From Brevinematia bacterium (GTDB lineage Bacteria > Spirochaetota > Brevinematia > DTOW01), in the NCBI GenBank assembly GCA_039630355.1, contig JBCNVF010000014.1:1-62293 (forward strand): a stretch of DNA of 62,293 bases. The letters are read 5' to 3'. The notes under the pieces are model-generated. The model was given only the letters and a program-made list of their open reading frames with translations. It was not told where the DNA came from and ran no database searches. Each line of letters begins with the position of its first letter. Within the stretch, counting starts at the first letter, position 1. Both the position numbers and the translations under genes were made by a program. This document shows positions 2,343 to 54,550 of the stretch, in pieces.

Positions 2343-2553
2343 TTATAGGTCTTAATTTCTATTGGATGAGCTGATAAAGTTCTCAGTTTCCTACCTATTT
2401 ACCATACTGGTTCTGGGTAATATTTTCCAATTTGGAATGTTATCTTAGGTTGAGTTTTCTATTGATGAAAATGACGAAGAATTTTGAGAAAATATTCTCT
2501 CATACTCTTGAGAGAGGAAGACTACACCCAATTGTGAATTTTAGACTTTATTA
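2343..2553 (+). mobile_element. Decayed full-length copy (E) of the ~210-bp TIR element
   Basis: Left end TTAATTTCTATTGGATGAG resembles CCAATTTCCATTAGATGAG of copy B; right end GAAGACTACACCCAATTGTGAATTTTAGACTTTATTA resembles copies C and D; length 211 bp. Confidence 0.55.
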
Positions 2554-2621
2554 ACCCTTTAAGCTTTTATTTGTAAGACAGAGGGCATTTTGCTTATTAT
2601 ACGAATAGCGGAATAGGTGTT

Positions 2622-3959
2622 ATGAAGTTTGTTAAGACTTTAGTTTTAACTTTGGTTTTGCTTTCCTTATTAGCAGTTTATGTCTTTGGAGACGGGCCTA
2701 TGGGACTAGATTTAGAGGAGTTTTATTTAGACAATGGTTTGAAGGTTATACTTGTGAAGAGGGATGTATTGCCTGTTGTTTCCATCCAATTGTGGTATAA
2801 GGTTGGAGCAGGGTTAGAAGTAGATGGTAAGTCTGGAATAGCACACTTTCTTGAGCATATGGCTTTTAAGGGGACAAAAAATCTAAAGCCTGGTGAGTTT
2901 TCAAGAATAATAAGATCATTAGGAGGCGAAGATAATGCAGCTACTTCGTGGGACTACACGATGTACTACGTTGATATCCCTTCAAAGCATACTGTTAGGA
3001 TCTTGCGTATGCTTAAGGAGATAATGTTTGATGTTGTGTTTGACGAAAGGGAATTTCAGAGCGAGAAAAAGGTCATTCTAGAGGAAAGAAGGATGAGGTA
3101 TGAGGATGATCCATTTGGGCAATTTTTTGAGGATTTCCTTGGTAATTCTTTTAGAAAGATAAGCTACCGTCGTCCTGTAATAGGCTGGGAGGAAGATATA
3201 AGAAACCTGACGTTGCAAGACTTAATCAGTTTCTATAACACTTTTTACTCACCAAAGAATGCAGTATTAATTGTTGTTGGTAACATTGAGAAGGATATAC
3301 TGAAAAAAGAGATTCGTGAGATCTTTAATGAGTCCTCTAAGAACTTTTCGCAAAAAGAAGCCGAGGTTGAAAAAGTAGATGAGTTTGGAAGTGGCAAGGT
3401 AGAGTTCAAAACAATAAGAAAGGATGCTAATTCTAAATCTGTCATTGTCGGTTTTAGGACACAGTCTTATAGAGCTTCACCGAAGGAAGCTGTAACGTTT
3501 GAAGTTCTTTCGTACATCCTTGCAGATGGTAGGAAGTCGAAACTGTATAAAGATCTCGTGGTTAATAAAAAACTTGCATCTAGTGTGAATGGTGGAACAA
3601 TGATGGGTAAGTATCCTTTCCTAACATACTTTTTTCTTGTCCTAAATCCTGATGTTGAAGTAGAGAGAGCGAAAAAGGAACTTCTGGAGTCACTCAACTT
3701 AGCAGTCAAAGGAGGAATAACTGATGATGAGATAATTACTGCAAAGAAGAAGATAAAGGCTCGTATGGTGTATGAGTTTGAAAAAAACCATGGCATCGCA
3801 TCTTCACTAGGCTGGAGTGAGGTTGTGTTAGGAAACTACAAAGAATTAGAAAAATTTATGACCATTGTTGATGAGATAACCAAAGAGGATATTATTAAAG
3901 CTTTTGAGAAATACTTTTCCGAGAATAATCTGATAATAGGATCTCTTGAAAGTTCATAA
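2622..3959 (+). CDS. M16 family (pitrilysin-like) zinc peptidase, exported
   Basis: Inverted zincin HFLEH in GIAHFLEHMAFKGT, NAATSWDYTMYY; signal peptide. Confidence 0.92.
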   Translation: MKFVKTLVLTLVLLSLLAVYVFGDGPMGLDLEEFYLDNGLKVILVKRDVLPVVSIQLWYKVGAGLEVDGKSGIAHFLEHMAFKGTKNLKPGEFSRIIRSLGGEDNAATSWDYTMYYVDIPSKHTVRILRMLKEIMFDVVFDEREFQSEKKVILEERRMRYEDDPFGQFFEDFLGNSFRKISYRRPVIGWEEDIRNLTLQDLISFYNTFYSPKNAVLIVVGNIEKDILKKEIREIFNESSKNFSQKEAEVEKVDEFGSGKVEFKTIRKDANSKSVIVGFRTQSYRASPKEAVTFEVLSYILADGRKSKLYKDLVVNKKLASSVNGGTMMGKYPFLTYFFLVLNPDVEVERAKKELLESLNLAVKGGITDDEIITAKKKIKARMVYEFEKNHGIASSLGWSEVVLGNYKELEKFMTIVDEITKEDIIKAFEKYFSENNLIIGSLESS

Positions 3960-4011
3960 GTTGCTTTTTCTCGCAAAGTGAGAGTAAGCCTAGGAGTCTA
4001 GATACGCATAG

Positions 4012-4944
4012 TTACTCGTAATAACTTATGATGGACGCTATTTTCTCTAGTTCTGGAACAAAGATAAAGATTTTGTTTTTGTTTTTCAGATAGACTTTGA
4101 GCTCCCGGAAGACTTTTGAAACCTCTTTGAACCTGAAGGTTAGCATAAACAGGGGGATAGAAGCAATGTCCTTAAATATTGTCCACAGGGGTTTTTTTGA
4201 GAGGAAATACTTAAAGGTTGGTTCGGACTTTTCAGGCTCGGATACGCTTGTTGAGATTTCAAGATCGGCTATTTTATCAACCACAAAATCTCTTTCCTCA
4301 GCGGATACTATTATGCACCCACTGCTCCATGCTCTTATTCCGAACTCAACAAGTGAAATAGCAGTAGGCAGTTCTGGTAGAAACCCTCCTATTGAGTTAA
4401 AAAGATTCTTGTTGTATATGCCAAGAAAATTGTTGGGAGTTAGACTTGCTGGATTTTTAGCATTCTCTAAGATAACCCATTCAAGTCTATCTTTCATAAC
4501 TCCTAGTTTGACTGTCTCTCTGATTCTTTTGCCTTGGTAGGATATTGTGGGAGTAATACAGAGAAGTGTTGGTTCAGATGAGAACAAACCTCTTATACCT
4601 TTAGTGTTCACCACAGAAGGTCTGTAATTTACACTCATTACCAAAACAAGCGGTGCACTGGCAGATGATATTGCAGTGTTCACTGCCTCAACTATTGATA
4701 TGTTATCGCTAGGTATTATGATTCTCGCTTTGTTAAGAATGTCACTGACATCCGAGATTTCAGTTGTAGAAGTATCTACATACATTATCTCTATATTAGA
4801 TATGCTTCCGAAGAAAGAAACAATGTCATTCACTCTGTTTCTAAATGCGTATAAGCTCTTTCTGCCGATGTATGCTATGGTGAGGGAGTACTTTTTTAAA
4901 TGCTGTTTGTCAACTCTGTTTGTCACATCAACGAAGTTTGGCAT
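4012..4944 (-). CDS. Divergent GT2 glycosyltransferase-like protein
   Basis: GT-A-like order (IEIMYVD..., AVNTAISSAS.PLVLVM, FNSIGGF...VEFGIRAWSSG); the DxD motif is not recognisable. Confidence 0.5.
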   Translation of the reverse strand: MPNFVDVTNRVDKQHLKKYSLTIAYIGRKSLYAFRNRVNDIVSFFGSISNIEIMYVDTSTTEISDVSDILNKARIIIPSDNISIVEAVNTAISSASAPLVLVMSVNYRPSVVNTKGIRGLFSSEPTLLCITPTISYQGKRIRETVKLGVMKDRLEWVILENAKNPASLTPNNFLGIYNKNLFNSIGGFLPELPTAISLVEFGIRAWSSGCIIVSAEERDFVVDKIADLEISTSVSEPEKSEPTFKYFLSKKPLWTIFKDIASIPLFMLTFRFKEVSKVFRELKVYLKNKNKIFIFVPELEKIASIISYYE

Positions 4945-4958
4945 AGTGCTTAAGAAAA

Positions 4959-4986
4959 TTTTCGGATAACCCTAAAAACTTCTAAA
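4959..4986 (-). promoter_or_regulatory. Candidate sigma28-like promoter TTTAG-N15-TCCGAAAA
   Basis: Ends 14 nt before the ATG at 4944; identical motif at 42913-42940. Confidence 0.4.
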
Positions 4987-5032
4987 ACTCATCAAACTGC
5001 CACCGAATTTTCGCTTTCGTTTTATCAACTGG

Positions 5033-7657
5033 TTAACTGTAATAGTTTGTTAGAAGTCTGATAACCTCGTTTTTGATTTCCGCAAGGTTACTTTCCTTTG
5101 CTATTCCGCCTCTTATGAAGTCCTTTCTTCCACCACCTCTCACTCCAACTTTTTCTAGTTCCTTCACTATATTTCTCAGATCCAATTCGTTGACGTTTGT
5201 TCCACAAACAAAACTGATATTCTTTTCACTTTCAGCAGATAGAAATATCACAACGTTTTCAATTTTTTCCTTAACCTTATCCACAACTGCTCCTAAAGAA
5301 CTAGCGTCAGCATCACCAAAGTGTTGAAAAACAAGTTTATATTTCCCTATTTCCTCAATATCTCTGCTGAGGTCTTCTAAGGCTATTTGCTTTCCAGAAT
5401 GAATCTTTGATCTTTCTAACTCTTTTATTCTTTTTATTAAACCTTCCACTCTCTGAGGTATATTTTCCACCCTAACCCCAAGTTGTTTAGAAACAGCTTC
5501 AGCAACTTCGTAATACTTTCTGAACTCTTCCAATGAAGATTTACCTGCAACTGCCTCTATTCTCCTTACACCTGAAGCTATTGCTTTTTCGTCTATTATC
5601 TTTATCAGTCCTATATCACCAGTTCTGTTTACATGTGTTCCTCCACAAAACTCTTTTGAAAAGCCTGGTATCTCAACAACTCTGACAATATCTCCGTATT
5701 TATCTCCAAAAAACGCAAGAGCTCCACTTTTTAGCGCTTCACTTTTCGGTAAATACTTCTTCACAACTTCTATGTTCCTGAGAACAATCTCGTTTGCCTC
5801 ATCCTCAACTTTTTTTATATCCTCTGGTGTAAGGCCAGAGTAATGCGAAAAGTCAAACCTTAACCTATTAGGTTCAACCAACGAACCAGCTTGAGCTACA
5901 TGATCACCAAGTATCTTTCTTAGCGAGAAATGAAGTATATGGGTAGCAGTATGATGTTTAGCAATGCTTTGTTTTCTGTTTACATCTACTGTCATCTTAA
6001 TTTTATCACCTACCTTGAAGCTACCCTTGCTAACTCTGACTATGTGTAGGTAGACATCATTCTCTTTAAGAGTATCCAGAACGAAGATAGTATTCTCATC
6101 AGAGAAGATCATCCCTATATCACCTACTTGACCGCCTCCTTCTCCATAAAACGGAGTTTCTTCGGAAATTAAAACTCCAATCTCACCCTCGCTAAGCAGT
6201 TCCCTTTTGGAGAAGCTCTCGCCTTCCCTTACGTAGATTCCCTTTATTCTAGATTCGTATTCAAAGTAATCTTCTCCAACATACTTTGTTACTGTTTCCT
6301 GCTTAACAATAGGTGAGAAATCAAATTTTTCTTCCTTCTTCCAGCTAAGTTTACCTCTTTGTCTTTGTTCTTCCATAAGTTCATTGAATTTTGCCCAGTC
6401 AATTCTAATTCTTTCGTCCTCGCAAACATCTTCAATTACATCTAGAGGTATTCCCATTGAGTCATATAACTTGAAAACTTCCTCTCCAGGTAAAACATCT
6501 CTTCCAAGCTCTCTTACCTTTACAATGATTTCCGAAAGGTATTTGACACCCTTACTTAGGTTTTTGAAGTATCTTTCTTCTTCAAGTTTTATTACTTTCT
6601 TCACTGCTTCCTTTTTGTCTATTATCTCAGGGTAAGTTTTGCCCATAGCTTCAACAACCCCATCAATGACCTTATAAACTATAGGTTGTTCTATTCCTAT
6701 TTTACTTGCATACCTTAGTGCCCTTCTCAGGATCCTTCTTATGACATATCCTCTGCCTTCGTTTGATGGATATATTCCTTCTGCTCCTACAAAAGTTATT
6801 GCTCTTGCGTGATCTGCTATTACGTTTATTGCGAAAATGTTGTCCTTCTCATACTTCTTATTGGTTTCTTCGCATATCTTTTTTATTATAGGTTTGAAGA
6901 TATCAGTTTCGTAAACACTCTTTTTCTCTTGTAATATCATAGCTAATCTTTCCAGTCCCATTCCTGTGTCTATTCCCTTAAACTCTAGCTCGGTTCTATT
7001 ACCACTTCTGTCTTGGTAGTATTGCATAAAGACAAGGTTCCAGAATTCCAGAAATCCTTCGCAGTTCTCGGGAGATCTACAGCTATCTTTATCGTATCCC
7101 CACCTATCTCTAAGGTCAATGTAGATTTCGGAGCAAGGTCCGCAAGGACCTTCGTCCCCTGGTGGTCCCCAGAAGTTATCCTTCTCGCCAAATCTTACAA
7201 TTCTACTAGAATCAATTCCTATACGCTTGTTCCATATCTCAAATGCCTCATTATCGTCTTTATAGATACTTACATAGAGAAGGTCTTTGTCAATCTCAAC
7301 CACCTGTGTCACAAACTCCCATGCAAATTCTATTGCCTCTTTCTTGAAATAATCGCCAAAGGAGAAGTTACCAAGCATTTCAAAGAAGGTGTGATGTCTA
7401 GGGGTTTTACCAACATTTTCAAGATCGCTAGCTTTCCCACCAGCTCTAAGACATTTCTGAACCGATGTTGCTCTGCTAAAAGGTGGCATTTTCTCTCTTA
7501 GAAAGTATGGTTTGAATTGAACCATACCTGCTGTGGTAAATAGAAGCGTAGGATCATCTGCAGGTATAAGTGGACTGCTCTCAACTACTTTGTGTCCTTT
7601 GCTTTCAAAAAATTCCAAAAATACTTTTCTTATTTCAGTGCTTGACAAGCTCTTCAT
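5033..7657 (-). CDS. alaS: Alanine--tRNA ligase
   Basis: DPTLLFTTAGMVQFK, RHHTFFEMLGNFSFGDYFK, HHTATH, FCGGTHV editing motifs, GGGRKD C-terminus. Confidence 0.98.
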   Translation of the reverse strand: MKSLSSTEIRKVFLEFFESKGHKVVESSPLIPADDPTLLFTTAGMVQFKPYFLREKMPPFSRATSVQKCLRAGGKASDLENVGKTPRHHTFFEMLGNFSFGDYFKKEAIEFAWEFVTQVVEIDKDLLYVSIYKDDNEAFEIWNKRIGIDSSRIVRFGEKDNFWGPPGDEGPCGPCSEIYIDLRDRWGYDKDSCRSPENCEGFLEFWNLVFMQYYQDRSGNRTELEFKGIDTGMGLERLAMILQEKKSVYETDIFKPIIKKICEETNKKYEKDNIFAINVIADHARAITFVGAEGIYPSNEGRGYVIRRILRRALRYASKIGIEQPIVYKVIDGVVEAMGKTYPEIIDKKEAVKKVIKLEEERYFKNLSKGVKYLSEIIVKVRELGRDVLPGEEVFKLYDSMGIPLDVIEDVCEDERIRIDWAKFNELMEEQRQRGKLSWKKEEKFDFSPIVKQETVTKYVGEDYFEYESRIKGIYVREGESFSKRELLSEGEIGVLISEETPFYGEGGGQVGDIGMIFSDENTIFVLDTLKENDVYLHIVRVSKGSFKVGDKIKMTVDVNRKQSIAKHHTATHILHFSLRKILGDHVAQAGSLVEPNRLRFDFSHYSGLTPEDIKKVEDEANEIVLRNIEVVKKYLPKSEALKSGALAFFGDKYGDIVRVVEIPGFSKEFCGGTHVNRTGDIGLIKIIDEKAIASGVRRIEAVAGKSSLEEFRKYYEVAEAVSKQLGVRVENIPQRVEGLIKRIKELERSKIHSGKQIALEDLSRDIEEIGKYKLVFQHFGDADASSLGAVVDKVKEKIENVVIFLSAESEKNISFVCGTNVNELDLRNIVKELEKVGVRGGGRKDFIRGGIAKESNLAEIKNEVIRLLTNYYS

Positions 7658-7714
7658 ACCGAGATGAAATATAATTAATGGTAATAATCTATTTCAATCT
7701 AGAGTGAAAGTGTT

Positions 7715-7865
7715 CAATAAGGCTTAAGATTTTTCGGATGATCGTTAGTAATTTGGTTCAGATTATGACTTTGGTGTTTTTAGAATTGTTGAACCTTTTT
7801 CTAATGATGCAAGGGGTGGTAGCAGAACGCCGATGAACGGAAATGCTTAAAAAGCTAGTGTGGTA
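7715..7865 (-). mobile_element. Possible relic (F) of the TIR element
   Basis: CAATAAGGCTTAAGATTT at 7715 matches the end of copy C at 15/18; only one weak internal patch (GCTTAAAAAGCTAGTGTG) supports the rest. Confidence 0.3.
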
Positions 7866-7952
7866 TAGCACTTTCTGTTTTGGTAGCCTATGGTAGAAAC
7901 TTTAAGCTCTTGGAGAATTTTCATGGAGTAGTTATTTATAATTCATCAGAGT

Positions 7953-9959
7953 ATGCGCAAGAAGATACTGCAGGACTTCATAAATGAAGCAAATCTACGT
8001 AGTAAGGAAGCTAAGGAAGCTGAGGATTTGCTTGATAAGATTTTTAGCTTTTTAAACGATGAAGAGCTTTTTTATACCTTAAATCCCAGTATATCTTCAA
8101 TGTTTTCACCCTTTCTTTTTAGAGATATGTTTAAAAGTTGTGATAGGATAATTAAGGCCCTTAGTAACAATGAGAATATACTGATATTTGGTGATAGGGA
8201 TGCTGATGGAATTATTGGGACTTTTATACTTAAAAACTTTTTAGATGAGTTCAAGTTGCATTTTAACTCATCGTCAGAGGTGTTTTACGAAGTTCCTGAA
8301 GAGAATGAAGTCTATGGTATAGTTCCAGAGTGTGTTGAGAGCTATAGGGATAGGGTATCTTTGATAATCACGGTGGATAACGGAATATCTGCATTGGATG
8401 CTGCAAAGAGAGCTTCAGAGTTAGGTGTTGATATGATAATTACCGATCATCATCAGCCTTACGAAGATGGAATTTTAAAATTTGCTTTTTCTGTAATCAA
8501 TCCAAAGATGGAGGGGGTTGGTGTTTACCTTTCTGGAGCTGGGGTTGTATTTTTCCTAGTGTTAGGCTTGCTGATACTATACTTTTACAAAGGTATCAGG
8601 CTAAACTCAATATTCTTTTTTTCTGACACCTCCGAGTTTCTACTGTTGGAGATTGAAGACTTTGTATCCAAAGTGACTACGGTGGGTATGAATGAAATTT
8701 CTAATCTCATCTCTTCTAGGGAGAAGGAGAATTTTGTATTTATTGATGCTGAACACTTAAAGTCGGTTTCTGCACTTATTCCTAACCTACATAGCTTTGT
8801 TGGTAAGCACTTTTTGATTAACTGTATTGCCAAAGGTCTTGGTCTGGGTAAACAGGATTTTAGTGCTTTGTGTAATAAGTTTAGAGTAGCGGATTTCTGT
8901 GGACTTCCAGAGGTTTTGACCAAAGTGCTTTTTCTTATGCATATTCTAGGGAAGACTGAGATAAAAAAGTATCTTGATAGGTATCTTCCTCTGGTAGGTT
9001 TGACGGTTCTTTCGGATAGTATGCCGTTCCTTTCGTACAACAAATTTTTTGTGAGAGAGGCTACTGAGAGAATAAGTAAGGTTGACGTTGACAGTGTTCG
9101 TTTTATTGTGTCTTGTAGAGTTGGCAAGGATAGGGTGAGCGTCAATGATCTTGTGATGAAAGTGATTCCGTTTGTAAATTCTGCTGGGAGGATGGGTAGA
9201 GCGGGTAAAGTAGTAGAATTGCTCTTAGAGAAGGACTTGAAGGAAATAAAAAAGCTTTTCGGGGAGTTAGAGAAACTGGACTTCAAGAGAAAAGAGATTG
9301 CAACTAGGTTTATTTCTTCTATTTCCGAAAAGATTGGAAAAGAGAGTGTTTTTGTTGAACCTTCTCTTGAAAGAGGGGTAATAAGTCTTATTTCTACGAA
9401 AATTTCAAGTAAGGTTAATTTCCCAGTGGTTGTTATGAGTAATGGAGGTAATGGGGATGACTTTTTCGGGTCAGCTAGATTCAGAAAGGGAGATGTCTTC
9501 TCTATTATGAAGTCGTTATCACACTATTTCAAAAGCTTTGCTGGTCATAAGAGTGCGGTGGGATTTGTAATATCTAAAGAAAAGATTGATGATTTTATTA
9601 GAGATTTCCTCGCTATTGACTATACAAAGTTCTACGAGCAGGTATTACCCATTATGAGGATAAGAATTTTAGACTTTCACAGAAACTACGCTCGTCTTTT
9701 CTACTTAGTAGAACCATTAAATGAAGAACTTAGGCCTGTGTTTGAAGATGAGGTGGTATTGCTTGACTATAAGAAAGATTTCTTACCTGACTCGTATAGC
9801 GTTAAAATAGGTGATTTATGGTTTACCACAGTTTGCAATGAAGAAAAGGTAAGGTCATCGTTGTCAAAAAGTGTCAGAATACTCTACTCTTACGAGTTTA
9901 GATTTGACAATGAACTTCAGCAGGAGCTGTTTTGTCCGAAAATTTTGGAGATCAAGTAA
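7953..9959 (+). CDS. recJ: RecJ-like single-stranded DNA exonuclease (DHH/DHHA1) with a long insertion
   Basis: GDRDADG, ITVDNG, ITDHH, NSAGRMG, GSAR and AGHKSAVG motifs. Confidence 0.85.
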   Translation: MRKKILQDFINEANLRSKEAKEAEDLLDKIFSFLNDEELFYTLNPSISSMFSPFLFRDMFKSCDRIIKALSNNENILIFGDRDADGIIGTFILKNFLDEFKLHFNSSSEVFYEVPEENEVYGIVPECVESYRDRVSLIITVDNGISALDAAKRASELGVDMIITDHHQPYEDGILKFAFSVINPKMEGVGVYLSGAGVVFFLVLGLLILYFYKGIRLNSIFFFSDTSEFLLLEIEDFVSKVTTVGMNEISNLISSREKENFVFIDAEHLKSVSALIPNLHSFVGKHFLINCIAKGLGLGKQDFSALCNKFRVADFCGLPEVLTKVLFLMHILGKTEIKKYLDRYLPLVGLTVLSDSMPFLSYNKFFVREATERISKVDVDSVRFIVSCRVGKDRVSVNDLVMKVIPFVNSAGRMGRAGKVVELLLEKDLKEIKKLFGELEKLDFKRKEIATRFISSISEKIGKESVFVEPSLERGVISLISTKISSKVNFPVVVMSNGGNGDDFFGSARFRKGDVFSIMKSLSHYFKSFAGHKSAVGFVISKEKIDDFIRDFLAIDYTKFYEQVLPIMRIRILDFHRNYARLFYLVEPLNEELRPVFEDEVVLLDYKKDFLPDSYSVKIGDLWFTTVCNEEKVRSSLSKSVRILYSYEFRFDNELQQELFCPKILEIK

Positions 9960-13013: not shown

Positions 13014-13117
13014 TAAAAACCAAAATTTCCGCTTGGAAAAAGAATATAAAGGTGAAGGTTTCATTCAGTATCTTGGCTTTAGGGTTACTTTAGTTAATCT
13101 CCTAGCTAAGCTTGTTT

Positions 13118-13331
13118 CAATAAATTCCAATTTCCACTGGATGACTAACCAAGACTCCAAGCTTTTTACTTACTCACTTTGATTCCAGATGGTGCTCGTT
13201 TGATCTCAGAATTTCATTTCACACTAAGTCTCTTAGGTGTTTTTGGGAGAGGTGTTCACTCAATCCTGATAGTGACTGCGAAAAAAATAAAAGAAAAACT
13301 ATGCCTAACTGTTAAATTTTAGAATTTATTG
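13118..13331 (+). mobile_element. MITE-like element copy A (214 bp) with TIRs and perfect 10-bp target duplication
   Basis: Left CAATAAATTCCAA versus reverse complement of right end CAATAAATTCTAA (12/13); flanked by AAGCTTGTTT at 13108-13117 and 13332-13341. Confidence 0.9.
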
Positions 13332-13386
13332 AAGCTTGTTTATTTTTAGTTGATGTTAAAAGAGAAATAGATATAATATTCTGGTT

Positions 13387-14961
13387 ATGGAAGTACTGAT
13401 TGTGATGGGTATTGTGTATCTGTGGTTTATACTCGCAGGTTACTATTCCATTAGAATTATCAGAAAGCTGAAAGGTTTCCAAAATATTCTTCTAAACTTT
13501 ATTAGATACCTTTTTGCTGTTTCGGTGATAACAATACCTATGACTTTGATACCAATAGAGTTTGTCAAATACCTTCTAGTTATCTACTTCTCTTTCACAA
13601 CTCTTCTTGCGAACGTTTTGCAAAAAAATAAGTTAGTTGCGGTAGATCTTTTAGCTACAATATCCTTCACATTAGTAGGAATTGCAGAAACTATCTTGAA
13701 AATGAATGTATTCTTGCCTTTAGGAATTGTGTATCTGGTTCTCTATACTGTCTACTATGCCTCTTTAAGGTCAGATGTTATAGTTGAGATAAAGAAGGCT
13801 GTTATTACTATTTCCGTTGTCATATCTACGGGTATAGGAGTGGTTAGTACATTAAGTTTGCTCAATATAGCGTATCTTCAGGTGATAGTTGGGTTGCCGA
13901 TTATATTGTCCTCAGTAGCTTCATATTTAGTTGTGCTTCTTAGCTACACTAGAACTATAGATACTCTAAGCAATGATGTTACTGCAGTTGTGCTTGAGAA
14001 AAGTAATAAAATCAAAGATTTTACATCTAGAATGGAAGAAATCGTCTTAAAGTTGAAGGATTGTTATTCGTCATTAGAGCTTAGTGTAGACAAAATAGAA
14101 AAGAACAAAGTGCAGGAATTTGTAAAAGAGTTAATATCAAGTGTTATGGAATTAAGTCCTATAGTTGAGTTCATTCAGAGGACAATAAAGGATTATCAGA
14201 ACAGAGTAGAAAAAATGGTAAAAGATTTACCGGCTCTTTCTGAAAATTTTGCTAGAGATTTTTCCGAGCTTATGAATACAAGACAAGCTCTTTCGGAAAC
14301 GAATACAAACGTTATGTCTTTAGTCAAAGTTGCACTTGATAGTGAGAGAGCAGTTATGAATGCGTCTAAGTCAATAAGAGAACTCAGAGCTACTGCTAGA
14401 AACCTTACTGATAACCTGAAGGTATTTGGTGAGATATCTGAACATTCTTCAATACTTTCCATAAACATAAGTGTAGAAGCTTCAAAACTTGGTAGTAAGG
14501 GTGAGGTGTTTTCTAAATTATCTCAACAGGCTAAGAAGTTTTCTGACCTGATATACTCAAATGTTGAAACGACAAAACGGTTAATAACCGAGCTTGATTC
14601 TAAAGCGGAGTTTAGCGAACATATGGTGAAAACTCTAGTCATGTCTTTTGTAGAGATGGAAACTGGTTTAAAGAATATATCAAAGGGTATTTCTATGATT
14701 CTTGAAAAGTTTGAAAATCTCTCAACCACAGCGGAGAACATTAGAAAGGGGATAGAGGAAATAGATAAGATGATGTTTATGATTCCAGAGTTTTCAATGG
14801 AGATAAGTAAAAGGGGGGAGGATATTCTTCTAAATTACAAGAAACTGAGAAAGTACTCTGACGATATACTGGTTGCTAGTAATTCGGTGGAAAACTCCGT
14901 AAAATCCATAGTTGAAAGTATAAAATCAACAATGGTGTTTGTAGAGAATTTGACGAAGTGA
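13387..14961 (+). CDS. Multi-TM methyl-accepting chemotaxis-like protein with degenerate signalling tip
   Basis: About six N-terminal TM segments, then a long coiled coil with SILSINISVEASKLGSKGEVF (MCP hairpin-like). Confidence 0.65.
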   Translation: MEVLIVMGIVYLWFILAGYYSIRIIRKLKGFQNILLNFIRYLFAVSVITIPMTLIPIEFVKYLLVIYFSFTTLLANVLQKNKLVAVDLLATISFTLVGIAETILKMNVFLPLGIVYLVLYTVYYASLRSDVIVEIKKAVITISVVISTGIGVVSTLSLLNIAYLQVIVGLPIILSSVASYLVVLLSYTRTIDTLSNDVTAVVLEKSNKIKDFTSRMEEIVLKLKDCYSSLELSVDKIEKNKVQEFVKELISSVMELSPIVEFIQRTIKDYQNRVEKMVKDLPALSENFARDFSELMNTRQALSETNTNVMSLVKVALDSERAVMNASKSIRELRATARNLTDNLKVFGEISEHSSILSINISVEASKLGSKGEVFSKLSQQAKKFSDLIYSNVETTKRLITELDSKAEFSEHMVKTLVMSFVEMETGLKNISKGISMILEKFENLSTTAENIRKGIEEIDKMMFMIPEFSMEISKRGEDILLNYKKLRKYSDDILVASNSVENSVKSIVESIKSTMVFVENLTK

Positions 14962-18729: not shown

Positions 18730-18820
18730 CAATAACCTCCAGTGTTTATTTAGTCGCAATAGGACTTCAAGAAAAGTAAGAGAAAAACTATGCCTAATTG
18801 TTAAGTTTTGGAATTTATTG
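18730..18820 (+). mobile_element. Internally deleted copy (G, 91 bp) of the TIR element
   Basis: Last 39 nt match copy A at 36/39 (all three mismatches are transitions); left end CAATAACCTCCAG. Confidence 0.75.
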
Positions 18821-18961
18821 AGACCTTTGTTGATTTGGGTGAGGTATAATCTTATTTTGTCCTGTGAATAAAAGGGAAAAGGAAAGTGGTGTACTAGATT
18901 AGGAAATCTGGAGTTGAAAAACCTATTTCTAGAAAGTATACTTTAGTTTGAAAAAAGCAAG

Positions 18962-20785: not shown

Positions 20786-20893
20786 TGACATTTCTTGGCC
20801 TTGGAAGTTTAGTATTCTGTCAGAGGTGATTGTGACTTTCTCAACTATTTTTGTCTTGTTGGAGAAGTTAAGAGTTACCTTCTTGCAGAATTT

Positions 20894-21043
20894 CGTAGAA
20901 TTAGAGTTTGAAGCTGGAAGGTTTTTCTCTTGCATCCTTTTTGGAACTAGTTGAACGATTTCTCAAAGAATGCCTAGGAGGTCTAGTGCGTAGAGATGTT
21001 CGTTAGAGAGTATTACTGTATTCAATAGAAATTAAGTGTATGG
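20894..21043 (-). mobile_element. Decayed, shortened copy (H) of the TIR element
   Basis: TCTCTTGCA...GGAACTAG...ATGCCTAGGAGGTCTAGTG parallels copy C; CAATAGAAATTAAG (21023-21036) is the exact reverse complement of 2351-2364. Confidence 0.5.
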
Positions 21044-30776: not shown

Positions 30777-30798
30777 ATCTCACCTCTTCGCTATTCTA

Positions 30799-30825
30799 TT
30801 ATCGGTAATATTATAAACATTGTTA
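30799..30825 (-). promoter_or_regulatory. Sigma28 promoter of flgM
   Basis: TAAC-N15-ACCGATAA versus consensus TAAA-N15-GCCGATAA. Confidence 0.65.
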
Positions 30826-30828
30826 AAT

Positions 30829-30927
30829 TTTCATTCAACAAATCACTCTCCTATACACCTAGACTCTACAATTGCTTTAAGCTCCTTAAAGAGAGTTAAA
30901 ACTTTTTTCATTCAACTTTCATTCAAC
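30829..30927. repeat. Three exact copies of the 11-mer TTTCATTCAAC in phase
   Basis: Copies at 30829-30839, 30906-30916 and 30917-30927 (offsets 77 and 11 bp). Confidence 0.75.
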
Positions 30928-31123
30928 ATCAAACTACCTTTGTGTCTTTTAAATCCCTCAAAAGGGAGCTAAAACCCGTTCAAATTGAAAAATACTTTGG
31001 TATTCACTCCTACCTCATAACTCCAGCTCTTTTTTGAATTATAAATGATCTTAATGTCAAGATGAAGGTATTTTTTCCGGAACCTCTAGTAATGCATTTT
31101 TTCGCACTAAAATATGTTGGTAA

Positions 31124-31367
31124 AGTGATATTAATTTCTGTTTGTAAAGATGAAAGAATTACACTCATATGTTCCGAAAGCCCTTTAGAAAAGAGCTATG
31201 ATGCTTTTGAGATTTACTAATACATCATTTTATGCCGTTAAAAGTTTGGAAAACCAAGACATTTTGGTATAATTTGCATAGTATGCTTTTAAAGCAGGAA
31301 AGAAAAGAGAGTTTCAATGTGGAATCATTTTATAATTACACAGGATTTTCAGATTTTGGATTTATTG
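31124..31367 (+). mobile_element. Possible relic (J) of the TIR element
   Basis: Right end AGATTTTGGATTTATTG matches copy I end at 15/17; left TTAATTTCT patch resembles copy E; interior not alignable by eye. Confidence 0.3.
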
Positions 31368-31434
31368 GCCTTGTTAATTTTATTGAATATCGCATTTTGT
31401 TGATTCAAAATAAACGGTGAAGTAGGAGGGAATT

Positions 31435-34007: not shown

Positions 34008-34037
34008 ACGGGGGAGTGAAACTCCTCCGTTATTTCT
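34008..34037 (+). terminator. Intrinsic terminator after the GH13 gene
   Basis: ACGGGGGAGT-GAA-ACTCCTCCGT 10-bp stem with one G-U, followed by TATTTCT. Confidence 0.7.
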
Positions 34038-34073
34038 GTATTCAAGGGGTTTCCACTAAAGATGCTCCGGAAT

Positions 34074-34275
34074 AATAAATTCCAATTTCCATTAGATGAG
34101 TAGATAAGATTCAACTTTTTGTTTACCCACCTCCTTTGTTTCTAGACAGTGTTTATCAGTTGCAAATTCACTTCATACCAAGCCTCCTATTAGGAAGGGT
34201 GTTTACACAGTCCTGATAGGGATGAAAAGAGTAAAAGAAAAACTGTGCCTAATTGCTAAATTTTGGAGTTTATTG
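34074..34275 (+). mobile_element. MITE-like element copy B (202 bp)
   Basis: AATAAATTCCAATTTCCA identical to copy A; right end AAATTTTGGAGTTTATTG; flanks GCTCCGGAAT / GTTCCAGAAT (8/10). Confidence 0.88.
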
Positions 34276-34390
34276 GTTCCAGAATTATTGAAAAGGATAT
34301 TGCTAACAACAGCTTCTAGTCAATGTATAGAGTGTAAACTAAACAAGAGTAAGACTGGTTTTAATCCCTAGGTGTAGGTTTGGCTACTTC

Positions 34391-35621: not shown

Positions 35622-35834
35622 CAATAAGGTTTAAAATTCACAGCTAGGTGTGGTTTTTCCTTCTTTCTCTTGCAGTTTCCTGTCGGGGACTAGGTAAGTT
35701 TTCTTCCTAGTAAGCATCTAAGAAGCTTGGTGTGAAGTTAAGTTTCATAACTGACGAACGCTATCTAGAACCGAAAGAAGTAAGCAGAAGTTTGGAATCC
35801 TGATTGTTCACTTGGTAGAAATTGGAATTTGTTG
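35622..35834 (-). mobile_element. MITE-like element copy C (213 bp, inverted)
   Basis: Ends CAATAAGGTTTAAAATT...AAATTGGAATTTGTTG; interior collinear with A, B and D; no target duplication seen. Confidence 0.85.
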
Positions 35835-35919
35835 GATAGCATTCCTGTGTTTTTGAAAATGGAGTTTTGGAAAGTTTACAATATATTTGACATTTTTCTT
35901 GCTGTAGGGAGGTTTAGAT

Positions 35920-39615: not shown

Positions 39616-39668
39616 AGGTTGTCAATTATTTTAAGCAAACCTTATTATCTATTTAGCTCACTAGTTTC

Positions 39669-39888
39669 CTATGAAGTCTAAGATTTACAGTTGGGTGCAG
39701 TTTCTTCTCCTTATTTTCCTCGCAGTCCCTGGCGGGACTGATGAACTTCTCTTTTGGCAAGCACCTAGCCTAGTATGAAATGAGGTTTTGTTACCGAAGA
39801 ACACTGCCTAGAACCAAAGGGGATAAATAGAAGTGAGCAAAAATTTTAGAATCTTGTTTACTCTCCTAATGAAAATTGGAATTTATTG
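39669..39888 (-). mobile_element. MITE-like element copy D (220 bp, inverted), overlapping the murD 3' end
   Basis: AAAATTGGAATTTATTG end at 39888; interior collinear with A-C; perfect hairpin CAGTCCC-TGGC-GGGACTG at 39723-39740. Confidence 0.85.
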
Positions 39889-41245
39889 CTAACTTTCTGA
39901 CTATGCTTTTAAAACATTCACCTCTGTGTTCATAGTTTTTGAACATGTCAAAGCTTGCATAAGCTGGTGAGAATAGGACGATATCTCCTTTATCAGCAAT
40001 TTCTCTTGCTTTTGTTACTGCGTCTTCTAGATTTTCTGCTTTGTAGAATTTGTTGTATCCTTGGGTTTTGAGTTTTTCAACTATAAGTTCTCTAGTGCTT
40101 CCGATTGCGATAACATACTTAACTTTTTTCTTTATTATGGGAACAGCTTCGTCAAAGTCCATTCCCTTGTCAAGTCCTCCTACGATCAGGACTATTGGGT
40201 TATCTAGACTTCTTATTGCACTAACCATTGCGTTTATAGTTGTGGACTTAGAGTCGTTTATGTATTTTGCTCCATCTATTTCTGTAACAAATTCCATCCT
40301 GTGTGGTAATGGTTCAAAAGAGTAAATGCTTTCCTCAATTATCTCTTTGGGTAGTTCCATTTCCATTCCTATTGCAACTGCTATCATGATATTCTCAATA
40401 TTGTGTTTGCCTATCAGTTTAACTCTAGTTGTATTGATAACTTTTTCTTCTTCAAACCATATATAGCCGTCTCTGAGGTATACCTCTTTGCTACTTAGTT
40501 TTCCGTTTCTACCTTCATAGGCCGAGAAAAAGATTTTTCTGCACCTTAGGTTATTTACTTGCGGTAAGTTCAGAAGGGATTTGTTTAGAACGCTTATTTC
40601 TTTCTCCTCAGAGTTCTTGAACAAGGAAAACTTTGACGCAATGTAATCTTCAAACGAGGGGTATCTATCAAGGTGATCTTTTGCAATGTTAGTTATAGCT
40701 CCTATTTTTGGGGTGAACTCTCTTGTGGTATCTATTTGAAAACTACTTATCTCTAGAACGAGAGTTTCAATATCCTCTTCAAAGAGTGAGAATATTGGTA
40801 TGCCTACATTACCGCCAATGAATGTTTTAGGGAGGTAGGAACTTAGGACTTTGTGTGTTATATTGGTTGTTGTTGTTTTACCGTCCGTTCCTGTTATAGC
40901 GATGTATCTGATATTGGGTTTTAGCCTGTAAAAAAGTTCAATATCTCCTATGACTTCAATGTCTTTTTCCAAAGCTTTAGCTATAATTGGATTAGTCAGA
41001 GGCACACCTGGGCTTGAGATAATCATCTCTACATTATCAAGCTCTGCATCCTCTGTGCCTAGTAGGTCAATGACTTCTCCTTTTGCTTTTTCTTTGACCT
41101 TGGATAGAAGTTCTTCTTTTTCGGGGTCTCTGACTTTGTCGGAGATTAAAACGTTGCAACCCTTTTCGGCTAGGAACTTGGCAGTATGAAAGCCTGTTCT
41201 ATGAGTGAATCCTAATACTAAGAAGTTCTTTTTACCTAGTATCAT
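39866..41245 (-). CDS. murD: UDP-N-acetylmuramoyl-L-alanine--D-glutamate ligase
   Basis: SSPGVP, AITGTDGKTTT, LEISSFQ, DHLDRY, NDSKST, FSPAYASFDMFKNYEHRG. Confidence 0.95.
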   Translation of the reverse strand: MILGKKNFLVLGFTHRTGFHTAKFLAEKGCNVLISDKVRDPEKEELLSKVKEKAKGEVIDLLGTEDAELDNVEMIISSPGVPLTNPIIAKALEKDIEVIGDIELFYRLKPNIRYIAITGTDGKTTTTNITHKVLSSYLPKTFIGGNVGIPIFSLFEEDIETLVLEISSFQIDTTREFTPKIGAITNIAKDHLDRYPSFEDYIASKFSLFKNSEEKEISVLNKSLLNLPQVNNLRCRKIFFSAYEGRNGKLSSKEVYLRDGYIWFEEEKVINTTRVKLIGKHNIENIMIAVAIGMEMELPKEIIEESIYSFEPLPHRMEFVTEIDGAKYINDSKSTTINAMVSAIRSLDNPIVLIVGGLDKGMDFDEAVPIIKKKVKYVIAIGSTRELIVEKLKTQGYNKFYKAENLEDAVTKAREIADKGDIVLFSPAYASFDMFKNYEHRGECFKSIVRKLAINSNFH

Positions 41246-46874: not shown

Positions 46875-46878
46875 ATTT

Positions 46879-46903: not shown

Positions 46904-46918
46904 TATCTCAGCACCCTA

Positions 46919-49963: not shown

Positions 49964-50036
49964 AGATCTCTACTTTTTACACTATGGTTAGAATAAGAAA
50001 ACCAGTTTTCGATTTTTCTAGAAGATTAACGAAAGG

Positions 50037-50990
50037 TTAGTCAATACTTAGACTAACTTCACCGAAACTGAATTTCCTGATTTTGTTGTTTTCCTCAACA
50101 ATTATTTCTCCTGATTTAGATACATCTATAAACTTGCATTTTATTTCCTCGTCACCAGACTTAATAATTATGTTTTTGCCAATAAGTCCCATATTTCCCT
50201 TCCATTTCTTGAACAAAGTATCGTAATTTAGAGATAGATTTTCTTCAAAGTTAGAGATTATCTTGTTTATTATTGTAGCTCTCTTTACTTCAAAACCTAA
50301 TATTTCGTAAACAGAAGTTGCTGTAGGAATGGTCCTGCTTGTACAACTATTTACATTCAGTCCAATTCCTAGAACTAGAAGTTCAACTAAGCCTGTGTCA
50401 CATTGAATTGTGCTTTCAATGAGTATTCCACAAAGTTTTTTATCGTTGTAGTAGATGTCGTTAGGCCATTTTATGAAGATCTCTTCTATATCAAACTCTC
50501 TTAGTGTGTCAACTACAGATAGAGAAATTGAGATAGAGTATCTAATGATTGTATCAGTTGATACCATAGGTTTTAGAACTATACTCATTGTGATGTCTTT
50601 ATCTTTTTCGGAATACCAACTTCTACCAAGCCTACCTCTACCTTTTGTTTGTTCCCTTGCTATTACAACAGTTTTGTTTCTAATTGTGTCTGAGTTTTTG
50701 AGACAGTAATCATTAGTTGAGGGTAGTGAATCAAAAACTAAAATTTCATATTCAGATATCGGACCACCTCTGGATTTGATCAAGGATGGATACATTACAT
50801 CAGGAATTGTTGCAATTCTGTATCCTATTCCTTTGTAGGTTTCTATTTCAAAACCTTCCTTTTGTAGGTCCTTTATGTATCTGTTGACCATTACTCTGCT
50901 TATGCCTATTGTTTTGGCTATATTTTCTCCTGAGATTATACCTCCATTAAGTAGCACTGACAGTAGTTCGTCTTTTTTATTCTTCTTCAT
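50037..50990 (-). CDS. birA: Bifunctional biotin ligase/repressor BirA
   Basis: N-terminal HTH (ISGENIAKTIGISR), STND, QTKGRGRLGRSW, KWPND, KLCGIL. Confidence 0.93.
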   Translation of the reverse strand: MKKNKKDELLSVLLNGGIISGENIAKTIGISRVMVNRYIKDLQKEGFEIETYKGIGYRIATIPDVMYPSLIKSRGGPISEYEILVFDSLPSTNDYCLKNSDTIRNKTVVIAREQTKGRGRLGRSWYSEKDKDITMSIVLKPMVSTDTIIRYSISISLSVVDTLREFDIEEIFIKWPNDIYYNDKKLCGILIESTIQCDTGLVELLVLGIGLNVNSCTSRTIPTATSVYEILGFEVKRATIINKIISNFEENLSLNYDTLFKKWKGNMGLIGKNIIIKSGDEEIKCKFIDVSKSGEIIVEENNKIRKFSFGEVSLSID

Positions 50991-51043
50991 AGCTTAAGTA
51001 TATTCACGAGTACATACTTTTTTCTAGTTGAAAACTCCAAGTT

Positions 51044-51227
51044 CAATAGATTCTAATTTCCGAGTGTCACTTTACATTTAACTTTCGGCTTTCATTAAGA
51101 GAACAATTTTAACCAGTCCTAACTAGGGTTACGAGAGAAATAGGAAAAAACTGCACCTAGTTCAGATAGGGACTACGATGGAAACAAAATGAAAACCATA
51201 CTTGATCATCAAATTTTGGATTTATTA
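51044..51227 (+). mobile_element. Rearranged copy (I) of the TIR element
   Basis: Left CAATAGATTCTAATTTCC; right AAATTTTGGATTTATTA; the hairpin-to-AAAAACT segment is present twice in tandem. Confidence 0.7.
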
Positions 51228-51350
51228 GACTACCCAAAGTGAACTTGAAGGAAAAAAGTGAGTTTAGAGAAAATAATTGTCTAGAGGACTGAAGATTCTC
51301 TGTAAAGGTGTCAATTATTTTGGTGTTTGGTAGTTTTTGTTGGGGTTGAG

Positions 51351-53039
51351 ATGAAATTATTTATAGTTGAGTCTCCCGCTAAGGCAAGGACTATTAAGTC
51401 ATACCTTGGGAGGGATTTTGTAGTTATTGCGACGATGGGGCATATAAGAGATTTACCACGGAAGGAGATGGGGATTGATTTCGTAAGGCTTGAGCCGAGA
51501 TATGTTTTTTTACCCGGAAAGAGAAAGATTGTGAAGAGGATTGTTGAGCTTGCGAAGAAGTCTGAGGAGGTTATACTTGCTTCGGACAAGGACAGAGAAG
51601 GTGAGATAATCTCACTTCATGTGAAAGAGATTGTGTCAAAGTATGTTGGTAAAACTAAGAGGATTGAGTTTACTGAAGTGACTAAGGAAGGGATATTGAA
51701 CGCTTTGCAATCGCCAAGAGATATAGATCATAACCTTGTTAATGCTCAGAAGACTAGGAGAATGTTGGATAGAGTTGTTGGGTATGTAATATCACCAATT
51801 CTGTTTAGGCACTTTAGGGGGATGTTCAAAGGAAAGTCGTTTTCTGCTGGTAGGGTTCAATCACCAGCTCTTAGGTTGGTTTGTGAGAGAGAGTTGGAGA
51901 TAAGAAATTTTACACCTCTAGCTTACTATGACGTTATGCTTGAGAGTGAGAGAGATGGAAAAACTTTCTTTTTGAAGTTGGTTAGTGAAAGGTTGGGAGA
52001 CAAGGAAGTGAAATTTGGTCCTGATAATAGAATAAACGAAGAGAAGCTAAGTGAGATAAAAGATAATGTTAACCTCTCGGATGTTAGGGTTGTTTTTTCA
52101 AAAAAGTTTAGAGACAGTATAAAGCCTTTACCTCCGTTTAAAACTAGCACTTTACAACAGGAAGCTTCAGCTAAACTAGGTTTCACTCCGTCAAAAACTA
52201 TGAAGATTGCCCAAGAGTTATACGAGGGGATTGAGATAGACGGAGAATTCGTAGGGTTGATAACCTACATTAGGACTGATTCTGTGAGAATTTCGGAGTA
52301 TGCTCTAAAGAGGGTTAGAGAGTTTATAAGGGAAAGATTGGGAGAAGAGTATTTGCCACCCTTACCTAGGGTTTATGAGGGTAGGGATGATGAACAAGGT
52401 GCTCATGAATGTATAAGGCCTACGGATGTGTACAGGGTTCCAGTTTCTTTAAAAGGTAAGATACCTGATGGACATTTTAGGTTGTATGAACTTATATGGA
52501 AGAGATTTCTGGCAAGTCAGATGAAAGATGCTGTTGTGGAAACAGCTGAGGTTTTAGTTAGCGACGGTAGATATAGTTTCTATGGAGTTTCAAAGATAGT
52601 TGTTGACAGGCAGTTTCTCAACTTCTATCCTCACAGTATTCCTGAGGAAGTATTTTTACCTTCATTAAAGGAAGGAGAAAAACTAGTGCCTGCTAGGCTA
52701 GTTTATGGTAGAAAGGTGACTCAACCACCACCGAGGTATACAGAGGCTACCCTTATAAAAAAGCTTGAAGATGAAGGGATTGGTAGACCTTCAACTTATG
52801 CTACCATTGTCTCAACGTTGATAGCTAGAAAGTATGTTGAAAAAAAGGGTAAATCTCTTGTTCCTACTGAATTGGGGTTTGCGGTATATGAATTTCTAAA
52901 GAAAAATTATCCGTCTGTTGTGGATCTAGGACTAACATCTTATATGGAGTCAATGCTTGATAAAGTTGAGAGTGGGGAGGTGAAAGATTGGAAAAGAATT
53001 TTCGTTGAGTTGCTTAACAAAGCAAAAATATCAATCTAG
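51351..53039 (+). CDS. topA: DNA topoisomerase I (type IA), catalytic core only
   Basis: IVESPAKA, GHIRDLP, ASDKDREGE, SAGRVQS, GLITYIRTDS (catalytic Tyr), GIGRPST. Confidence 0.92.
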   Translation: MKLFIVESPAKARTIKSYLGRDFVVIATMGHIRDLPRKEMGIDFVRLEPRYVFLPGKRKIVKRIVELAKKSEEVILASDKDREGEIISLHVKEIVSKYVGKTKRIEFTEVTKEGILNALQSPRDIDHNLVNAQKTRRMLDRVVGYVISPILFRHFRGMFKGKSFSAGRVQSPALRLVCERELEIRNFTPLAYYDVMLESERDGKTFFLKLVSERLGDKEVKFGPDNRINEEKLSEIKDNVNLSDVRVVFSKKFRDSIKPLPPFKTSTLQQEASAKLGFTPSKTMKIAQELYEGIEIDGEFVGLITYIRTDSVRISEYALKRVREFIRERLGEEYLPPLPRVYEGRDDEQGAHECIRPTDVYRVPVSLKGKIPDGHFRLYELIWKRFLASQMKDAVVETAEVLVSDGRYSFYGVSKIVVDRQFLNFYPHSIPEEVFLPSLKEGEKLVPARLVYGRKVTQPPPRYTEATLIKKLEDEGIGRPSTYATIVSTLIARKYVEKKGKSLVPTELGFAVYEFLKKNYPSVVDLGLTSYMESMLDKVESGEVKDWKRIFVELLNKAKISI

Positions 53040-53506
53040 AGCTTTCTATACTTTTCTACAATAGAGAGTGTCTCAAAGAAGGTTTTTAGAGCTTCTTTTA
53101 GTTCGGTATCTTTTACCTTGCTAGTGAGTTTTTCTATCTTTCTCTTTTTTTCGGTAGTAATGCTGGGAGTAGTTTCTTTCTCTTTTTTTTCGTTTCCAAG
53201 AAGGGAACTGAATTTAGTGAATTTATTTATGTCATACACTGTTTTTATCGTTTTCACTGTTAGTTTGGTTTCCTCTTTTATTCTTCTTTTTAGTTCGTTT
53301 TGGCTGAAGTAGATCTCGTTGGCTATGATGGGGTCATCGCAAGCTATGTAAAGCTCTGATTTTTTCACAAAAAACTTATAGGGGACCGCATGCTTGAAGA
53401 GAAAATCTCCTGCTATATTTTTCCAGTTGGAGAGAATGGAGTACATTATTGACATACTTGGAGGTATGTATCTTGAGAGTAGTTTTTTTACGATGGATGA
53501 GATCAT
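53036..53506 (-). CDS. dciA: DciA (DUF721) family helicase-loading protein
   Basis: I..NWKNIAG...HAVP...LYIACDDP..ANEI pattern; basic C-terminal tail. Confidence 0.65.
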   Translation of the reverse strand: MISSIVKKLLSRYIPPSMSIMYSILSNWKNIAGDFLFKHAVPYKFFVKKSELYIACDDPIIANEIYFSQNELKRRIKEETKLTVKTIKTVYDINKFTKFSSLLGNEKKEKETTPSITTEKKRKIEKLTSKVKDTELKEALKTFFETLSIVEKYRKL

Positions 53507-54372
53507 TTTGATAGTTCTCTAGATTTTTTTGTTGCTTCTTCAACTGCCTTGATGAAGGCAAACCTGAGCCTATTTTCTTCAAGGGCCTTTATGCCTTCGG
53601 CAGTTGTGCCACCGGGGGACATTACCATATCTTTTAAAGCCTCAGGGTGTAGTTTGCTGAAGTTTTCCAAAACCATCTTTGCACTTCCTAGCACAGTTTG
53701 TGCGGAAAGTAATAAAGCGTCATTTCTGCTAAGTCCCATTCTCACTCCTCCATCCGCAAGAGCTTGTATGACCATAAATATATATGCAGGACCACTTCCA
53801 GAAAGTCCTGTTACTACGTCAATAAGATCCTCATTTTCAACAACCACTCCCTTACCGAGCTGTTCAAAAAGTTTTAAAACGATTCCCCTATTCTTTTCTT
53901 CTACTTTCTCGCTGAAGAATATTCCAAATGCTCCTTCTCCAACCAAAGTAGGAGTGTTTGGCATTACTCTGACTATTTGCACTTGACCACCTATTGCTTC
54001 TTCTATCTTCTCAACCCTAATGCCTGCAAGAATAGATATTAGTACTTTATCTTTGATAAGTGAGAGATAGGCTTCATTTCTTTTGTCTATTGCCTCGTTG
54101 ATCATGTGTTTTACTTCTCTGAGTGAGTTGGTTAAGTCTTTGGGCTTAACACATAGGAATATTATGTTGCAGGTGTTGAACAGAGAGGTAACACTATCAA
54201 GAGTTTTCAGTCCGGCATTTCTTGCCTCTTTCATCTTATTCTCATCTTTGTCGTAGACGTAGAAGTTTTCGTTTGGAATGATGCTATCTTTTGCATAGAG
54301 TAATCCTTTAGCTAGGGCACTGCCCATATTACCAAAGCCTATGAAGCCCAAGTTTTTGTTTAGCTTTTCCAT
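53503..54372 (-). CDS. proC: Pyrroline-5-carboxylate reductase
   Basis: GFIGFGNMG, LCVKP, RVMPNTP, TGLSGSGPAY, SPGGTT. Confidence 0.96.
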   Translation of the reverse strand: MEKLNKNLGFIGFGNMGSALAKGLLYAKDSIIPNENFYVYDKDENKMKEARNAGLKTLDSVTSLFNTCNIIFLCVKPKDLTNSLREVKHMINEAIDKRNEAYLSLIKDKVLISILAGIRVEKIEEAIGGQVQIVRVMPNTPTLVGEGAFGIFFSEKVEEKNRGIVLKLFEQLGKGVVVENEDLIDVVTGLSGSGPAYIFMVIQALADGGVRMGLSRNDALLLSAQTVLGSAKMVLENFSKLHPEALKDMVMSPGGTTAEGIKALEENRLRFAFIKAVEEATKKSRELSK

Positions 54373-54499
54373 ATGGTGTATTCTGTCTGGATAGAAAGTA
54401 TATTAGCGGAGGAATACTGCCGGCAAGTTAGAGAAGTTTTTGATTGCCAGACCATAAGTTGGTGGAAGTTTTAAACCTTTGAAATGTTATTTTGGAGAC

Positions 54500-54550
54500 A
54501 AGAAGTTTAAGAAGTTAGGAGAGGGTGGATGATAGGATTGAAATTTACTG
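54500..54550 (-). mobile_element. Possible solo end (K) of the TIR element
   Basis: ATTGAAATTTACTG versus ATTGGAATTTATTG (12/14, both transitions), preceded by AGAAGTTT as in copy C. Confidence 0.25.

Follow-up and report, generated by a model that had tools for sequence, protein, structure and literature searches.

The 62,293-bp contig JBCNVF010000014.1 of the Brevinematia bacterium assembly GCA_039630355.1 (37% G+C; the contig in its full length is referred to here as the window) carries, between its genes, repeated copies of a non-coding element of approximately 210 bp, which are the subject of this report. Coding sequences account for 90% of the window. Its assignment to the order Brevinematales is based on FlgG, a SpiroCoCo-like coiled-coil protein, and the best relatives of its HtrA, which are 70-75% identical and are found in metagenome-assembled genomes (MAGs) labeled Brevinematales, Brevinematia, or Spirochaetia. 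The window sequence is present in only two hot-spring metagenome runs (designated X1 and X2), both from a single study, at a depth of approximately 5x. Since independent Logan contigs from both runs span the junctions between the element and its flanks at ≥99% identity, the insertions seen in the window are not assembly artefacts.

An original prediction, made from the letters of the DNA, had listed eleven places for the element, and seven of these hold homologous copies, including four full-length copies, two diverged full-length copies, and one that is internally deleted. The full-length copies are A (positions 13118-13331, plus strand; 214 bp), which begins with CAATAAATTCCAATTT and ends with AAATTTTAGAATTTATTG, B (34073-34275, plus strand; 203 bp), C (35622-35834, minus strand; 213 bp), and D (39669-39888, minus strand; 220 bp). 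As predicted, these four copies are collinear, aligning over approximately 210 bp with a mean column identity of 72%, and all of the sequence landmarks that had been listed for them are present in order; pairwise blastn of the intergenic regions gave E values between 4e-26 (A-B) and 9e-8 (C-D). The two diverged copies are F (2343-2553, plus strand; 211 bp) and G (51044-51228, plus strand; 185 bp); each keeps both ends, and in G the interior is partly replaced. In copy E (18730-18820, plus strand; 91 bp), a 5' CAATAA is fused to the 3'-terminal ~85 bp of the element. A hidden Markov model (HMM) built from A-D only and run on the window also finds positions 18742-18826 (E value of 8e-10), 2354-2557 (1e-6), and 51090-51233 (3e-4 and 5e-3), and with an HMM built from nine sequences the copies at 18730, 2343, and 51044 reach E values of 9e-17, 2e-29, and 1e-19, respectively. 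While the decayed or deleted copies predicted at these three places were thus recovered by profile searches, a fourth one, predicted at 20894, is marginal; a possible decayed internal fragment (20890-21000, minus strand) was found there with an E value of 0.008 in a profile search confined to intergenic DNA. The weaker traces proposed at 7715, 31124, and 54500 were not borne out, as profile searches with filters off gave no match at any of the three even at E≤100; by eye only, position 7715 resembles a solitary inverted-repeat end. Overall, seven or eight copies are supported, instead of the 8-11 that had been proposed.

Copies of the element occupy 7/11 of the intergenic gaps of at least 250 bp (8/11 if the fragment at 20894 is counted), which agrees with the claim that the family fills most large gaps. 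Together, the seven copies account for 2.2% of the bases in the window and for 21% of those that are non-coding. The local density, measured on this one 62-kb contig, is about 112 copies per Mb for seven copies and up to 128 per Mb; provided that the contig is representative, extrapolation would give a genome-wide density of approximately 110 copies per Mb. Copy-to-copy identities, taken from a multiple alignment, are 75-80% among A, B, and E (78-80% for E to A and B), 65-69% for C and D to others, and 51-62% for F and G to the rest, with F only 51-57% identical to other copies. This wide range indicates several sublineages of differing age. Judged by sequence, A, B, and E are the younger copies (the duplication flanking A is still intact) and F and G old and decayed ones, in keeping with the young-looking and very old copies that had been predicted.

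The element is bounded by a terminal inverted repeat of 10-19 bp (5' CAATAAATTC / 3' GAATTTATTG), which is perfect over 10 bp and matches at 14/19 positions when extended (5' CAATAAATTC(C)AA(TT)T compared with the reverse complement of the 3' end, ...AAATTTTAGAATTTATTG). Ten of the first 12 alignment columns at the 5' end are invariant among A-D, compared with 38% over the entire alignment; an invariant end would be expected if transposition selects for intact ends, and fits selection for transposase recognition in the source lineages. The boundaries of the element are sharp, as contigs from other loci begin to match A at position 13117 and stop matching at 13331, with unrelated sequence beyond, and the match of a paralogous contig to B begins at 34074. 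Directly outside these boundaries, duplications of the target site with a length of 9 bp are seen at A, B, and D. Copy A is flanked on both sides, at 13108-13117 and 13332-13341 (plus strand), by AAGCTTGTTT, with a match at 10/10 positions. Copy B has GCTCCGGAA on its left (34064-34072, plus strand) and GTTCCAGAA on its right (34276-34284, plus strand), which match at 7/9 positions and differ by two transitions. With regard to D, the left duplication (39889-39897, minus strand; GAAAGTTAG) is still within the murD coding sequence, and the right one (39661-39668, minus strand; GAAACTAG, aligned as GAAAC-TAG) is decayed by one substitution and one deletion, such that 7/8 aligned positions match and one base is lost; without the gap the match is 5/9, which alone is not significant. 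Among 20,000 random flank pairs drawn from the window with the same boundary slack, a 9/9 match occurred once and a match of ≥7/9 in 2%. The flanks of C match at 4/9 positions and show no recognizable duplication; C, E, F, and G are all at background, as expected of older copies.

No ORF (open reading frame) is shared by the copies, every frame in every copy containing at least two stops, and a scan of 30 of the 47 ORFs in the window revealed no transposase; both observations agree with the original prediction. Small size, absence of an ORF, inverted ends, abutting duplications, and dispersed copies that have common boundaries and unrelated flanks are the features of a MITE (miniature inverted-repeat transposable element). 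We thus conclude, with high confidence and in line with the original prediction, that the family represents a MITE, i.e., non-coding elements of ~210 bp derived from a DNA transposon by internal deletion, in an uncultured hot-spring spirochete of the order Brevinematales. According to the mechanism that we propose, a transposase encoded elsewhere would bind both inverted ends (CAATAAATTC(C/T)AA..TT) and move or copy the element, inserting it at a 9-bp staggered cut, the repair of which would leave the 9-bp direct duplication. Copies would persist only where they are harmless, namely between divergent promoters, in convergent gaps past terminators, and, in one case, within the final codons of murD, which are dispensable. 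Several sublineages would have been active during an extended period.

A number of observations weigh against this interpretation. First, an autonomous element or a transposase with matching ends was not found in the window or in approximately 150 kb of related loci, and neither turned up in the GTDB genomes (among the matches listed) or in scans of JGI and IMG/VR sequences. Second, no empty-site allele was seen in X1 or X2, where, at a depth of only ~5x, no joint skips the element at 95% or 80% likeness; the related genomes are too rearranged for a site-by-site comparison of filled and empty sites. Third, at 51-80% identity the copies differ from one another to an unusual degree for a single MITE family within a genome, and a statistically recognizable duplication flanks only two to three of the seven copies. 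Finally, a related lineage represented by GCA_026414895.1 and GCA_025061835.1 (locus L122) has an identically oriented copy at the equivalent place upstream of htrA even though HtrA is only 71% identical between the two lineages, which could hint at selective retention as opposed to neutral parasitism. As neither a partner transposase nor an empty-site allele was found, we infer, rather than observe, both mobilization in trans and the hundreds of copies genome-wide that had been suggested, and the same applies to present activity, to the type of transposase involved, and to the number of copies in the genome.

The positions of the copies relative to neighboring genes bear on whether the elements have acquired a function. 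The gene at 13387 is preceded by the promoter-like site TTGATG-N16-TATAAT (13350-13377), and 19 bp separate the end of copy A from the -35 box downstream of it. Copy C lies between two divergent promoter-like sites, TTGAGA-N18-TATAAT of a glycosyltransferase gene (35600-35571, minus strand), 22 bp from one end of C, and TTGAAA-N18-TACAAT of htrA (35853-35882, plus strand), 19 bp from the other. Copy F is located in a divergent gap upstream of an OmpA-family gene and copy G upstream of topA. In total, there are six cases in which an element end lies 16-24 bp upstream of a -35 hexamer (i.e., A and the gene at 13387, C and htrA, C and the glycosyltransferase gene, F and ompA, and, in the L122 lineage, a single copy relative to both htrA and ompA). 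Copies B and D are found in convergent gaps; B begins 33 bp past a terminator-like hairpin and T-run of a pullulanase gene (34008-34040), and D overlaps the 3' end of murD, the last six codons of which (INSNFH), along with the TAG stop (39868-39866), are supplied by the 5' inverted repeat of the element. Copy D was inserted into the end of murD and replaced its last codons; under the gapped reading of the duplication, joining the left flank of D to the sequence past the right duplication restores an in-frame ...VRKLVS*, the probable end of the gene before the insertion.

In this contig, 90% of which is coding, the copies sit in insertion-tolerant places, and we read the regular spacing of 16-24 bp from -35 boxes as survivorship and not as targeting. 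The same spacing in six cases, together with the presence of an equidistant, identically oriented copy upstream of the conserved htrA promoter in both the window and the L122 lineage, would also be compatible with a former MITE that is now co-opted, its copies being kept by selection as spacers, insulators, or protein-binding modules just upstream of promoters. We regard such co-option as unlikely, however, since in a genome that is 90% coding the stretch between divergent -35 boxes is the only insertion-tolerant place. Moreover, it is not always the same end of the element that faces the adjacent promoter (3' in A, 5' in C), convergent gaps are the location of B and D, the interior of the element is poorly conserved, and a copy upstream of htrA is lacking in four other related lineages.

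These lineages were sampled by comparing htrA neighborhoods from six related lineages, five of which are distinct from the lineage of the window itself. The family is present in one of these five, the L122 lineage, and no copy was found in the sampled htrA neighborhoods of the other four. The L122 copy upstream of htrA (9632-9924, minus strand) is located between ompA and htrA and has the orientation of C, and its spacing from the conserved htrA promoter is nearly that of C; a second, truncated copy was found at 2414-2558 (minus strand). In this lineage the inverted repeat shows a matching change in both arms (5' CAGTAAATTC, 3' GAACTTACT). The copy upstream of htrA is 59% identical to C and 57-59% identical to A, B, D, and G; since C is thus no closer to it than non-syntenic copies are, and the other four lineages have no copy there, the two probably arose by separate insertions at a permissive site, and orthology of C with the L122 copy is unsupported. 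An origin of copy F from the L122 ompA-htrA copy by recombination was rejected, as the end of the element that faces ompA is the 5' end in the window and the 3' end in L122. Compared with the window copies, the L122 copy has ~80 extra bases in the middle of the element (at ~9700-9830), which may represent an internal duplication or insertion.

With regard to the surroundings of these copies, the htrA promoter TTGAAA-N18-TACAAT is conserved between the window (35835-35919) and L122 (9585-10000), as is the GAAATTGAAATC motif upstream of ompA (window, 2279-2342; L122, 9585-9631), and a MITE copy abuts the htrA and ompA promoter regions in both genomes. In L122, ompA and htrA are divergent neighbors that have one copy in common; in the window, the two genes are 33 kb apart and have one copy each. 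The only synteny found among six Brevinematales lineages (seen around htrA, at ~10000 in loci L121, L122, L125, L133, and L137) is htrA-accA-aroC, and the gene upstream of htrA differs in each. The gene order around htrA points to heavy scrambling with a breakpoint adjoining a MITE-bearing place. Copies near -35 boxes might be functional modules upstream of promoters or else recombination hot spots that drive gene-order scrambling in Brevinematales, with the family perhaps moved by a type of transposase not yet linked to such ends; we assign this broader scenario a low probability.

Beyond the window, further contigs matching parts of A at ≥80% identity were found in both metagenome runs (nine in X1 and seven in X2), most of them at the genome's own depth of ~5x. 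A shorter variant of the family, in which a contig matches A up to position 13178 and then F from position 2526, is present at 61x in X1 and at 11x in X2. The 61x depth in X1 indicates that a more abundant organism of the same spring also hosts the family. Together with copy E, this variant demonstrates that internal deletions occur, as would be required if the copies were independent leftovers of full-length insertion sequences (IS elements), each separately reduced by internal deletion. We consider this explanation very unlikely, though, given that all full-length copies have a common collinear interior of ~210 bp with identical landmarks and that a full-length relative was seen neither in the window nor in the ~150 kb of related loci. 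The common collinear interior instead supports that the deletion giving rise to the short form happened once, before amplification.

In JGI metagenome contigs, a two-anchor pattern that fits all four full-length copies gave seven chance matches and no elements, and two scans of IMG/VR gave chance matches only; blastn of copy A against plasmid and phage collections gave no matches. Among the at least 120 matches listed for the 18-mer AATAAATTCCAATTTYCA in GTDB genomes, none was an element and many belonged to an unrelated CCAAAT-rich hairpin repeat. This hairpin repeat, which is ~170 nt long, contains the 18-mer and consists of one arm with CCAAAT/CCAAGC-like units and a complementary other arm; it was seen at L003, L015, L020, L039, L055, L081, L119, and many other loci, in MAGs of Aminicenantes, Acidobacteriota, Omnitrophota, Syntrophaceae, Clostridia, and others, and is unrelated to the spirochete element.

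Searches and folding analyses for a non-coding RNA were also negative. An Rfam search of the entire window at gathering score found only a tRNA-Val, and the copies themselves match no Rfam family even at E≤1. Single-sequence folds of both strands were no more stable than dinucleotide shuffles (z scores of +1.04, -0.16, -0.15, and -0.45), with the terminal helix formed by the inverted ends as the sole feature that survives in the centroid fold, consensus folds of A-D were weak (-4 and -12 kcal/mol over 227 columns), and neither a σ70-like promoter nor an intrinsic terminator was found inside A-D. A multi-copy structured small-RNA gene, for which the inverted repeat would be the closing helix of the RNA, is therefore highly improbable, as the ability of the ends to pair and the few predicted pairs that change on both sides among the four copies are outweighed by these negative results and by the flanking direct duplications, which are not characteristic of RNA genes.

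Among known repeat families, the MITE described here resembles repetitive extragenic palindromic (REP) sequences and bacterial interspersed mosaic elements (BIMEs), which are mobilized by REP-associated tyrosine transposases (RAYTs), in being an abundant intergenic repeat. However, REPs are G+C-rich palindromes of 20-40 bp without target duplications, whereas the present element is 210 bp long, A+T-rich, and non-palindromic, with inverted repeats only at its termini and 9-bp duplications. The Correia/NEMIS elements of Neisseria and the RUP elements of Streptococcus pneumoniae are short, non-coding, intergenic elements that are bounded by inverted repeats and found near promoters, and certain copies of them alter genes nearby; they are 100-155 bp long and duplicate TA, and Correia elements carry promoter and integration host factor (IHF) sites. 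The present element, by contrast, is ~210 bp long with a 9-bp duplication, and no internal promoter-like site was found in copies A-D. Duplications of ~9 bp are produced by IS4, IS1, the IS903 group of IS5, IS256, ISAs1, and ISLre2, and 5'-CA termini are found in many IS4-family ends. The present family shares with these IS families, compared by family traits only, the 9-bp duplication, short inverted repeats, and 5'-CA termini, but differs from them in that no transposase gene is linked to its ends. Judged from duplication length and CA termini, the responsible transposase could be IS4-, IS1-, IS903-, IS256-, ISAs1-, or ISLre2-like.

Comparison with prokaryotic MITEs (PMC3184786, PMC11602168) shows agreement in size (within 50-800 bp), inverted repeats (≥10-15 bp), and duplication length (within 2-10 bp), as well as in the lack of a transposase, the intergenic location, and the many dispersed copies. 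Differences are that no parent insertion sequence was found here, that the copies are very diverged (51-80%), and that the sequence is without a match in Rfam, in the collections of plasmids and phages, and in what was scanned of JGI and IMG/VR. According to a 2024 census, a Spirochaetes cluster averages 145 MITEs per genome, mostly intergenic (PMC11602168), so the claim that the family would be unusually dense for a spirochete was overstated. The MITE-rich Spirochaetes of that census (Leptospira, Sediminispirochaeta, and Treponema; PMC11602168) are alike in phylum and MITE abundance but have a coding density of <80%, compared with 90% in the window, which furthermore represents the order Brevinematales and a hot-spring habitat. 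The highest MITE density in the census, over all families, is 123 per Mb in Wolbachia (PMC11602168); with ~112-128 copies per Mb locally, on one 62-kb contig, the single family described here comes near this all-family maximum. The MITE family is apparently uncatalogued, and the novelty lies in the family itself, in the lineage that hosts it, and in how dense it is locally in a compact genome; its kind is already known, because MITE-rich spirochetes have been documented (PMC11602168).

One further repeat-like feature was observed in the window. A 658-bp gap (30777-31434) contains, at 30948-30975, a lone 28-nt TTTAAATCCCTCAAAAGGGAGCTAAAAC with a palindromic core that occurs once in the window, matches ~27 very short X1 contigs at 95-99%, and has a word depth of up to ~7000x, compared with ~5x for the genome. 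This sequence looks like an orphan CRISPR repeat, the arrays of which would be located elsewhere in the community. The adjoining stretch (30965-31125) is ~85% identical to a 155x contig; the region shows no relation to the MITE and has no Rfam match.

Our understanding of how MITEs work is unchanged by these findings. The family accounts for most of the large intergenic gaps in this contig and has altered the C-terminus encoded by murD, so masking of the family is advisable for annotation, and the family probably fragments assemblies of the host organism. Copies could be used to mark strains, and they could offer a way to find the responsible transposase. Finally, a compact genome that is 90% coding can carry, locally, a single MITE family at ~110 copies per Mb, which fills one fifth of its non-coding DNA.

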